From IMG/VR virus record IMGVR_UViG_2737471865_000007: a stretch of 13,979 nt of DNA, one strand, 5' to 3'. The stretch's first letter is position 1, and each line of letters begins with the position of its first letter. The stretch is from a virus (lineage: Duplodnaviria; Heunggongvirae; Uroviricota; Caudoviricetes). Below, piece after piece: positions 7,787 through 9,181 of the stretch. The position numbers were made by a program, and so were the translations under genes. The notes below the pieces were generated by a model that was not told the DNA's origin, did no database searches, and saw nothing but the letters and a program-made list of their open reading frames with translations.

Positions 7787-8074
7787 CCCCTTTATTATAT
7801 AAATTCTAATAATTAGCGTAGTAACGGTATTTTCAGACTGCTATCAATCCCATCAATACGTCATCTCATCGCATCTATCATAACTTTTTCATTCGTGATA
7901 GATATCTTTTGATCAATATCAATGTTTTCCGGGGACTTGCCCGGCTATAGTTCGAATCCAGGAAGGGGAGCATTGATAGAGACACCCAAAGGGGTGACTG
8001 AAAGTCACCTGGCATAGCCAGTGAAAGCACCCCAACCGAACAAACAAATCAACTTCTCGCAAAAGGTGATAGTT

Positions 8075-8197
8075 ATGGGTATCAAGAACAGTGCCAGCGC
8101 ATGGCAAAAGGCCAGGTTTCATCACCCACACATTATTAAGGCAATTGAGGTGGTTGGAGTGTTAGCCCTGATGTTAGCTCTGTGTGTGGAGGTGTGA
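8075..8197 (+). CDS. Candidate small protein (40 aa) with hydrophobic C-terminus
   Basis: ATG 11 nt after the 15-nt motif TCAACTTCTCGCAAA, with AAGGTG Shine-Dalgarno; translation MGIKNSASAWQKARFHHPHIIKAIEVVGVLALMLALCVEV. Below the ORF-track size cut-off, so weakly supported. Confidence 0.3.
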   Translation: MGIKNSASAWQKARFHHPHIIKAIEVVGVLALMLALCVEV

Positions 8198-8275
8198 GAT
8201 GGGCAAAGGAGGCAAAGCATTTTTAATAAGTCTGGCAGTCTTAGATTTTGTATTAATCAGCATTGAGAGGAGTTT

Positions 8276-8536
8276 ATGACGGGGGCTAAAGATATCAGGA
8301 GACTGAGGGAAGAGCTGATAGCTGAAATTAAAGCTAAGGCAAAGCAAATGGAGATAGCCGCACAAATGGATGTAGCGGAACAGATGTACAAGATGGTTGA
8401 GGAGGGAACGCCACGACAGGTCATCGCTAAAACCTTCGGTGTGGGGATCGCCACCGTGCACAGAAGGCTGAAAGCTTATGCCGACTACCACAATATCGAG
8501 AGAAAGGAGGATGGGAGATTCAGGAAAGCTAAATGA
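8276..8536 (+). CDS. Small HTH DNA-binding protein (86 aa), Fis/NtrC-C-terminal-like
   Basis: AGGAG 3 nt upstream of the ATG at 8276 (short spacer); N-terminal coiled-coil-like region and C-terminal segment TPRQVIAKTFGVGIATVHRRLKAY resembling the Fis-type HTH. Confidence 0.55.
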   Translation: MTGAKDIRRLREELIAEIKAKAKQMEIAAQMDVAEQMYKMVEEGTPRQVIAKTFGVGIATVHRRLKAYADYHNIERKEDGRFRKAK

Positions 8537-8593
8537 TGTAAACGGTCCAACAGGTTATTAACTAAACTCAACTTCTCGCAAAGGGGTACCACT

Positions 8594-9181
8594 ATGAACA
8601 TTAAAACTATCATTGCAGCCCTCACCATTGCCTTTAGTGCCAACACCGCAGCTATTGATGTTAATTTATTTCAGGAGATGACTTGCGAAGATAAATTAGT
8701 CGCCATGGATAAGGGGCTAGAAGCCACGCACGATGGGGAACAGTTTCATTTCTCCTTGAAGAATCTTATCTTGCCCCTGGATTCTGCCGCACAGGTATAT
8801 GCAACATTGGGTAAATTTGAGAAGCCGGAAATTGACCTGCAGGGCGTGAGAGCGAAGATCACCAAAAGAAATGAAAGCATTTGTGATATAGCGGTTACGG
8901 CCCTTATGACAGATGATGAAAAAACGATTATAGCTACATGCAAAGATAGCAACGACAACGAACGATTCTTTAAGATCACCCACAACAGGCCTGTTTCTTT
9001 CTACTCTAATGCCACAATGGGCGCGGGTATGCAGTGGCTGAAGAGAGCTAAAGTAACTGAGGTTAATGCTGATGACGATTTATCCTATGAATACGGTTTT
9101 ATTTCAAATTATATGGCGTGGCACCTGAAAAAATGCGGCATTGATATTCAGGCATACGACAACGGATTTTGGTTTTTCTAA
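8594..9181 (+). CDS. Secreted/periplasmic protein of unknown function (195 aa)
   Basis: N-terminal signal peptide MNIKTIIAALTIAFSANTAA with an AxA-type cleavage motif; four Cys in the mature part; ATG 11 nt after the TCAACTTCTCGCAAA motif; followed by a strong terminator. Confidence 0.7.
   Translation: MNIKTIIAALTIAFSANTAAIDVNLFQEMTCEDKLVAMDKGLEATHDGEQFHFSLKNLILPLDSAAQVYATLGKFEKPEIDLQGVRAKITKRNESICDIAVTALMTDDEKTIIATCKDSNDNERFFKITHNRPVSFYSNATMGAGMQWLKRAKVTEVNADDDLSYEYGFISNYMAWHLKKCGIDIQAYDNGFWFF

Follow-up and report, generated by a model that had tools for sequence, protein, structure and literature searches.

The IMG/VR virus record IMGVR_UViG_2737471865_000007 comprises 13,979 nucleotides (hereafter the window, meaning the whole stretch that was analysed) and matches circular E. 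coli plasmids, non-mobilizable and ~13.2-13.7 kb in size, that form a family. The subject of this analysis is a 15-nt element, TCAACTTCTCGCAAA, which is found before two start codons of a small operon and has a third, variant copy in a distant noncoding gap. Judged from the sequence, the element is most likely one half of a newly predicted pair of a small regulatory RNA (sRNA) and its targets.

The repeated element and the operon that carries it

The two identical copies lie within the following features:

7909 to 7952, plus strand: probable promoter of the operon, with an FNR box (TTGATCAATATCAA, 7909-7922), 23 nt, and a -10-like TATAGT (7947-7952); no -35 box
8049 to 8063, plus strand: predicted target site 1 (15-mer; core 8049-8060, UCAACUUCUCGC), in the 5' untranslated region (5'UTR) of orf40, immediately 5' of the orf40 Shine-Dalgarno (SD) sequence
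8075 to 8197, plus strand: orf40, which opens the operon and encodes a 40-aa peptide, hydrophobic in its C-terminal half; predicted regulated gene 1
8199 to 8279, plus strand: orf26, a second small hydrophobic peptide, with its own SD and a stop codon overlapping the next start (ATGA)
8276 to 8536, plus strand: HTH_7 protein of 86 aa, with a long N-terminal helix and a helix-turn-helix (HTH), encoded between both target sites
8568 to 8582, plus strand: predicted target site 2 (15-mer; core 8568-8579), within the 57 nt that separate the HTH gene from the cargo gene, immediately 5' of the cargo SD
8594 to 9181, plus strand: variable cargo gene for a protein of 195 aa whose N-terminus resembles a signal peptide; predicted regulated gene 2
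9202 to 9222: terminator and 3' boundary of the cargo slot, the 5' boundary of which is target site 2 with its SD

An earlier note on this DNA had described an identical 15-mer before two start codons, and both copies were indeed found to be exact on the plus strand, each followed 11 nt downstream by an ATG (at 8075 and 8594), with a purine-rich SD (AGGTGA, GGGG) inside the 11-nt stretch. At up to three mismatches, the 15-mer has three sites in the window, against 0.56 expected from shuffled sequences, and three sites were reached in 2 of 200 shuffles. The sole further site is TCAACCTCTCGCGAG at 3748-3762, which had been given as a 13/15 variant; the actual match is 12/15, with three mismatches, and it does sit in the loop of an inverted repeat, between perfect 12-bp arms at 3732-3743 and 3768-3779. 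The 12-nt core TCAACYTCTCGC occurs in three mismatch-free copies in the window, all on the plus strand, with no others. This core, UCAACYUCUCGC in the RNA, is most likely the functional part of the 15-mer; the last three bases (AAA or AGG) are the only part of the 15-mer that varies. The motif was not found at the remaining 16 start regions of the plasmid. The core had also been placed in the spacer of a promoter at 11599-11627, and a 9-mer, TCTCGCAAA, is present within that promoter-like site at 11606-11614; because it is kept in only 4 of the 25 plasmid sequences searched (window included), it looks like a chance match outside the motif system.

The relatives used for comparison include eight annotated plasmids that are close to the window, while more divergent ones were collected by exact-protein look-ups and a metagenome scan, which also yielded three more close relatives. 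All eight annotated close relatives carry the exact 15-mer at both places. Among the divergent plasmids, L015 has 81% identity to the window where it can be aligned and is unalignable around the motif sites, and in clade 2 (L025, L034-L039) 40% of the window aligns at 78% identity, with an HTH protein that is 57% identical. Copy 1 is nevertheless unchanged in L015 and clade 2, though its flank differs right up to the motif, while copy 2 in the divergent relatives reads TCAACTTCTCGCAGG, ACAACCTCTCGCAAA or ACAATCTCTCGCAAA. Wherever all three sites are readable, in 24 plasmids (the window and 23 relatives), there are exactly two SD-adjacent copies and one third copy. The core is constant where neighbouring bases vary, including those of the SD and of the spacer that follows it. 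The spacing of 11 nt to the ATG, which the earlier note had taken as fixed, holds at both copies of the window and ranges from 10 to 14 nt across the family; what remains constant is the abutment of core and SD, with a gap of 2-4 nt in all lineages. Conservation in related elements had been named as a check, and the core is kept at both sites in every relative. As the note had argued, then, the repeat is not a chance one: both sites are invariant or nearly so, even where their flanks are unalignable, and this comparison indicates that the element is real and under strong constraint. Beyond the family, exact 18-mers of the motif have only chance matches in unrelated contigs of IMG/VR.

The two copies belong to an operon with a distinctive promoter. 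Its FNR box (TTGAT-N4-ATCAA) matches the FNR consensus perfectly. Of the 23 plasmid sequences examined, the window among them, 22 retain the half-sites and the 23-nt gap but differ in the central N4 (CAAT, CCTG, GTAG). From these features, the orf40/HTH/cargo operon is predicted to be activated anaerobically by FNR, in class II fashion. Target site 1 lies ~90 nt from the predicted transcript start, or ~40 nt in relatives that lack a 48-nt insertion in the 5'UTR. This insertion (7982-8029), which contains the hairpin GGTGACTGAAAGTCACC and ends 20 nt before motif copy 1, is present in the window and several relatives (e.g., L001, L002, L021, L029, L031) and lacking in others.

The reading frame of orf40 is conserved in relatives, and its product has no match in Pfam, PHROG or PADLOC and none to a toxin family. 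The 86-aa protein matches Pfam HTH_7 (E=3.4e-6), and its best solved relative is the DNA-binding domain of Hin (E=0.0036); the AF2 model (pLDDT 83) consists of a long helix and an HTH, for which Foldseek returned generic HTH folds only. The cargo gene is replaceable: relatives carry two unrelated families in its place, one of them with three different N-termini, and the junction falls at the ATG. All cargo proteins in the relatives have hydrophobic N-termini, either signal-peptide-like or transmembrane, and none of the cargo proteins has a match in Pfam, PHROGs or PADLOC.

A candidate small RNA gene at the third copy

In a noncoding gap between the convergent tape-measure and neck genes, at a distance of 4.3 kb from the targets, the third copy is found together with the following features:

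3767 to 3796, minus strand: promoter-like element of the predicted sRNA, with a -35 box TTGACT (3796-3791), an 18-nt spacer and a TGn-extended -10 box TAACAT (3772-3767)
3671 to 3759, minus strand: predicted sRNA of ~89 nt, consisting of a 5' seed, a U-rich stretch, a small hairpin and a terminator
3748 to 3759, minus strand: predicted sRNA seed, reading 5'-GCGAGAGGUUGA-3', which complements the core (one pair being G·U)
3671 to 3701, minus strand: intrinsic terminator, with stem 3701-3695/3682-3676, a 12-nt loop and a U-run at 3675-3671
3732 to 3779, no strand assigned: perfect 12-bp inverted repeat (AACCTGCTAACA / TGTTAGCAGGTT) around the seed, overlapping the -10 box of the sRNA

This gap exists in the plasmids as two allelic forms, A and B, which are unalignable by BLAST. 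On the minus strand, the complement of the core reads GCGAGAGGTTGA in form A and GCGAGAAGTTGA in form B, and the form B seed, GCGAGAAGUUGA, is a perfect Watson-Crick complement of the core. Both forms have a common minus-strand layout, namely GAGTTGACTT, a spacer, the seed, a GC-rich hairpin and a T-run. The sequence GAGTTGACTT, which holds the TTGACT -35 box, is invariant in both forms and lies 31 nt (form A) or 29 nt (form B) from the seed, whereas the spacers between the -35 box and the seed are unrelated in sequence. The predicted start of the sRNA, near G3759, is the point where the complementarity to the targets ends. This arrangement of promoter, 5' seed and terminator is, as far as the sequence tells, the standard anatomy of a small regulatory RNA.

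The terminator appears to serve the minus strand, because its hairpin is followed by a U-run on that strand alone and by none on the plus strand; an automatic terminator scan missed the structure at 3701-3671, the loop of which is longer than 8 nt. In form B, the GC hairpin with its U-run directly abuts the seed, while ~45 nt separate seed and hairpin in form A, and the predicted sRNA of the form B plasmids is short, ~45-56 nt. No Rfam family reached its gathering score anywhere in the window, and a relaxed search (E up to 5) of 3560-4130 gave sub-threshold matches only, unrelated to C4, among them a ctRNA-like terminator with 23.6 bits against a threshold of 50 bits. The 12-bp inverted repeat is present in form A plasmids only and absent from form B; in a longer minus-strand transcript of form A, it would display the seed in a 24-nt loop.

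Pairing between the seed and the two sites was evaluated in all 24 plasmids. In the window, 12 pairs (one G·U) form at positions -26 to -15 of both start regions, and at least 11 contiguous pairs were found in all 48 seed-target combinations. Where the targets change internally, at position 6 (U/C) or at position 5 (C to U), the opposite seed base is a G, which gives either G-C or G·U; the U to A change at position 1 of the clade 2 target is a terminal mismatch, and plasmids with an A at position 6 of the seed have only U there in their targets. The last three bases of the 15-mer are unpaired with the seed, as the complementarity stops at the predicted transcript start, and ~8 further pairs are possible beyond the 12-nt seed pairing in the window.

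The predicted energies follow the same pattern. The first 30 nt of the sRNA gave -26.4 kcal/mol with the orf40 start region and -24.4 kcal/mol with the cargo start region, against -9.1 to -19.6 kcal/mol for the 5' end of the sRNA with the other 16 start regions, so that the motif sites are the top two of 18. Conversely, when the whole plasmid was scanned with the motif, the minus strand at 3759 was the best partner (-20.7 kcal/mol vs. -13 to -17 in shuffled sequences), in a ranking that excludes the direct antisense strand of the two sites. Both target sites lie within the predicted transcript, directly 5' of the SD, and are moderately accessible, with no conserved structure. Sequestration of the SD in a conserved local hairpin was considered and rejected: the pairings predicted are weak and are broken by natural variants such as AAGGTTATAGAT, and the accessibility is unremarkable.

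Two side observations concern the surroundings of this locus. Clades that elsewhere share only 78% identity, where alignable, are 96-99% identical in the adjoining noncoding segment 3800-4120, while in L015, L029 and L031 a diverged allele replaces this segment and adds a basic open reading frame (ORF) of 49 aa on the plus strand; the segment may be a module open to exchange or else an RNA or DNA element under strong constraint. Just past the terminator, at 3624-3637, GTGATCAAAATCAA resembles an FNR/CRP-like box with one mismatch, which is kept in form A; the count of such boxes is at chance level.

Possible roles of the element

The reading favoured here, with a probability of roughly 0.55, is that the two 15-mers are mRNA target sites of a plasmid-encoded, trans-acting antisense sRNA. 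It is suggested by the third copy, since the variant at 3748, when read on the minus strand, complements the core and is accompanied by a -35 box and a terminator in both allelic forms. A minus-strand sRNA gene, convergent with the tape-measure gene, would be transcribed from about 3759 and carry its seed (3759-3748) at the very 5' end. The seed would pair with two start regions on a single mRNA of the operon that looks FNR-activated, and pairing directly 5' of the SD would hinder 30S or standby binding, or trigger decay, so that both genes would be co-repressed. The co-regulated pair would comprise the 40-aa membrane peptide orf40 and an exchangeable membrane or secreted cargo protein, and whichever cargo gene occupies the slot would inherit control by the sRNA. 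The seed might have a second source in the long 3' untranslated region (3'UTR) of the minus-strand structural operon, where it would lie in the loop of the inverted repeat, while plus-strand read-through from the tape-measure gene, being fully complementary to the sRNA, could conceivably titrate it. What the analysis shows is the sequence features with their conservation, complementarity and predicted energies; we infer that the RNA is made, pairs in vivo and represses. Repression is more likely, because it is the commoner outcome of pairing at this position; activation is a possible alternative, because the core contains an anti-SD-like CUUCUC.

Several points weigh against this proposal. Both the sRNA and its two ends are predicted; the -10 box of form B (CACACT) is weak, and promoter-like matches in the region are, as a class, not above chance (3 found vs. 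1.1 expected). The family is narrow, being confined to E. coli, with few independent substitutions, so that covariation is thin, and no true double compensatory changes occur among the seed-target pairs of the 24 plasmids. The near-identity of form A between clades (96-99% vs. 78%) may stem from recent recombination and not from selection. In addition, pairing stops 2-4 nt short of the SD and leaves it uncovered, and orf26 and the HTH gene each have an SD with no motif beside it, which leaves control of the whole operon unexplained. Three bases of the seed are partly paired internally in the form A fold, and the predicted sRNA matches no Rfam family.

The earlier note had proposed a shared operator or translational control site read by an element-encoded regulator, with a Fis-like or other HTH protein as the candidate. 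Translational control has stood up as the best description of the sites, while a DNA operator is disfavoured, because the sites are without dyad symmetry and are placed away from promoters, one ~90 nt inside the 5'UTR and the other between cistrons; the likeliest regulator is instead an antisense RNA encoded opposite 3748-3759. A rival explanation is a DNA operator for the plasmid's own 86-aa HTH_7 protein, whose gene lies between both motif copies: as a monomeric domain, it might read an asymmetric ~12-bp sequence at three sites, autoregulating or roadblocking the operon and repressing whatever starts at 3759. The DNA-binding domain of Hin binds a half-site of ~12 bp, and the HTH_7 and Hin matches and the modelled long helix with HTH would suit such a role, as would the retention of the 12-bp core in clade 2 beside a diverged HTH. 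Copies 1 and 2, however, hold neither a dyad nor a repeated half-site, both are away from the FNR-type promoter, and only the third copy overlaps a promoter-like site. Since binding to DNA gives no reason for abutment to the SD in every lineage, or for a third site flanked, in each of two unrelated contexts, by a -35 box and a minus-strand terminator, and since the Foldseek matches are generic, this explanation is considered unlikely. The abutment to the SD at both sites in all lineages would also fit a cis-acting RNA element, read without any antisense RNA by the ribosome or by a protein of plasmid, host or helper phage, either as a translational operator or as an unstructured C/U/A-rich enhancer or standby site before the SD. 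The core is G-poor and weakly structured, and the plus-strand third copy of form A lies in a hairpin loop, like many protein-binding RNA sites. This, too, is rather unlikely, as complementarity to 16S/23S rRNA is at the level of shuffled sequences (16S, -13.5 kcal/mol vs. -13.1 +/- 1.7), the core shows no enrichment in the genome of an rV5-like phage, 12 invariant bases are more than a generic enhancer would require, no candidate RNA-binding protein was seen among the plasmid genes, and the promoter-seed-terminator layout on the opposite strand would go unexplained.

It is improbable that the element lacks a regulatory role and is a duplicated start-region module or a crossover linker for swapping of cargo, with the third copy as a relic. 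Copy 2 is the exact 5' boundary of the replaceable cargo gene, indels or unalignable sequence begin near copy 1 and the third copy, and the plasmids are mosaic; yet homologous exchange needs more than 12-15 bases to be efficient, the core does not change while adjacent bases, SD and spacer included, vary, and a relic would not keep both its perfect complementarity and a fixed place relative to the -35 box and terminator in two diverged forms. The orientation of all three copies on the plus strand could also be read as a promoter or start signal for a non-host or helper-modified polymerase, with starts just before the SD at copies 1 and 2, and with the third copy, which follows a hairpin, opening a plus-strand unit behind the tape-measure gene; this copy lies ~430 nt ahead of the small plus-strand ORF of 49 aa in form B, and the motif bears a loose, by-eye resemblance to promoters of single-subunit polymerases. 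Such a signal is very improbable: the plasmid has no polymerase gene, the three copies share no conserved sequence on the downstream side of the core, the core is again not enriched in the rV5-like genome, and the structural genes point to rV5-like helpers, relatives of which are reported to be without an RNA polymerase of their own (PMC7344957).

Other candidate identities of the motif were tried and set aside. As a helper-phage signal, the core has no site at 0-1 mismatch in the complete genome of phage rV5_ev168 (138 kb) and 20 sites at two mismatches against 14.8 in shuffled sequences, none of them beside a start codon; in the literature on the rV5-like subfamily, only sigma70-like early promoters were found. 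Pairing with 16S/23S rRNA in the manner of the T7 gene 10 epsilon-type enhancer did not exceed shuffled controls, and readings as sigma54, sigmaE, IHF, lambda boxA, CsrA or GcvB-type sites fitted poorly by eye.

For the antisense sRNA favoured here, the closest systems in logic are, by analogy, the c4 antisense RNA of P1/P7 (icd-ant) and the CI RNA of satellite P4 (seqA/seqB/seqC), in which a small RNA acts on two repeated complementary sites of an operon. Both RNAs are processed from the leader of the operon that they control and share a defined fold (Rfam C4), and the mechanism in P4 is premature termination. The likeness consists in an element-encoded small RNA with short complementarity to two repeated targets in one operon, at least one of them beside a ribosome binding site; that c4 and CI set the expression state of their element is counted as a further likeness for the predicted plasmid sRNA. 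Unlike them, the predicted RNA would have a transcription unit to itself on the opposite strand, at a distance of 4.3 kb, and would not derive from the leader of the target operon; it has no C4 covariance match, and its sites abut SDs, whereas P4 acts by premature termination.

Chromosomal sRNAs such as RybB and OmrA/B, as generally known, offer a likeness in anatomy: a promoter, a single-stranded 5' seed of ~12 nt, a U-rich stretch and a Rho-independent terminator with U-tail, as well as one seed that serves several mRNAs at or just upstream of the start region. The possible dual origin, from an own promoter or from the 3'UTR of an upstream operon, recalls the 3'UTR-derived CpxQ and DapZ. In contrast to chromosomal sRNAs, the predicted RNA is plasmid-borne, both of its predicted targets are on the same replicon, and the form B version is unusually short (~45-56 nt). 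Moreover, a hydrophobic peptide gene (orf40) with a 5'UTR complementary to a small RNA resembles type I toxin-antitoxin pairs (tisB/istR-1, shoB/ohsC, zorO/orzO), and pairing upstream of the SD resembles the tisB standby site; unlike in those pairs, the RNA gene is 4.3 kb off and neither adjacent nor divergent, there is a second, unrelated target, and no toxin family is matched. With the HTH_7 half-sites of Hin/Gin, the element shares an asymmetric ~12-bp core and a neighbouring HTH_7 gene, and it differs in that no catalytic recombinase domain, inverted pair of half-sites or invertible segment is present and the sites go with SDs instead of promoters or crossover points.

If the sRNA and its targets are real, they would constitute a new plasmid-borne regulatory RNA with targets in an uncharacterised ~13.5-kb family of E. 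coli plasmids, and would provide a simple handle on it, as 12 bases could be mutated at either locus. They would also suggest a design principle, in which a cargo slot is edged 5' by an sRNA target and an SD, and recombined genes gain the same anaerobic promoter and RNA control. A wider and doubtful extension is that the sRNA and its two sites form a lifestyle or immunity switch of an undescribed, autonomously replicating plasmid satellite of virulent rV5-like (Vequintavirinae) phages, which would parallel the function of the P4 CI RNA or P1 c4 RNA. Such a switch would gate an FNR-activated operon in which the genes for a membrane peptide and an HTH regulator are joined by an exchangeable cargo gene for an envelope protein, which may serve exclusion or defence; the switch itself would be flipped by convergent late transcription through the sRNA gene that titrates or silences the RNA. 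For annotation, the case suggests that a repeat before start codons and a variant of it in a hairpin loop can belong together as the partners of an RNA-RNA pair.

The plasmid family and other features of the window

Protein searches with the plasmid proteins found the family in E. coli only, and no description of it was found in the literature searched. Neither the HTH nor the capsid protein has relatives in IMG/VR, and the family was not found among the GTDB species representatives. One sequence, NZ_CP043822.1 (39,610 bp), has three tandem places that match the whole window, apparently a plasmid trimer or an assembly concatemer. Outside the operon and the sRNA locus, the genes assigned are as follows:

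1448 to 3568, plus strand: tape-measure protein, 706 aa
4121 to 4573, minus strand: neck/tail-completion protein
4570 to 5364, minus strand: Dit-like tail-tube initiator, 45% identity to rV5-like phages
5890 to 6927, minus strand: major capsid protein, 25% identity to rV5-like phages
Adjoining the major capsid protein gene: a 111-aa protein
12505 to 13419: O-like replication initiator

The structural genes are thus related to those of virulent rV5-like (Vequintavirinae) phages, and no terminase, portal, or tube or sheath genes were identified among the ORFs screened, which do not comprise every ORF. From its gene content, the plasmid looks like a plasmid-form phage satellite.

The structural genes on the minus strand are preceded by a near-consensus sigma70 promoter (7786..7758, minus strand; TTGACA-17-TACAAT with TG). 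Between this promoter and the first structural gene, a noncoding stretch of ~400 nt (7330-7730) is highly conserved and contains hairpins with compensatory changes (CCGAC...GTCGG vs. CCAAC...GTTGG); it has no Rfam match and may be a structured leader or a regulatory RNA of the late operon.

As well, two near-consensus sigma70 promoters (11407-11435 and 11599-11627) bracket a hydrophobic ORF of 49 aa (11472-11621), followed by a terminator at 11678-11702; this unit (11407-11702) may encode a small toxin-like peptide or serve the rep operon as a leader unit. At 10500-10720, five direct repeats of ~20 bp (ACCTGTTGGAATTTCCCACA-like) are iteron-like, as for a replication origin, and they begin with AACCTG, resembling the arms of the inverted repeat at 3732-3779 (AACCTGCTAACA).

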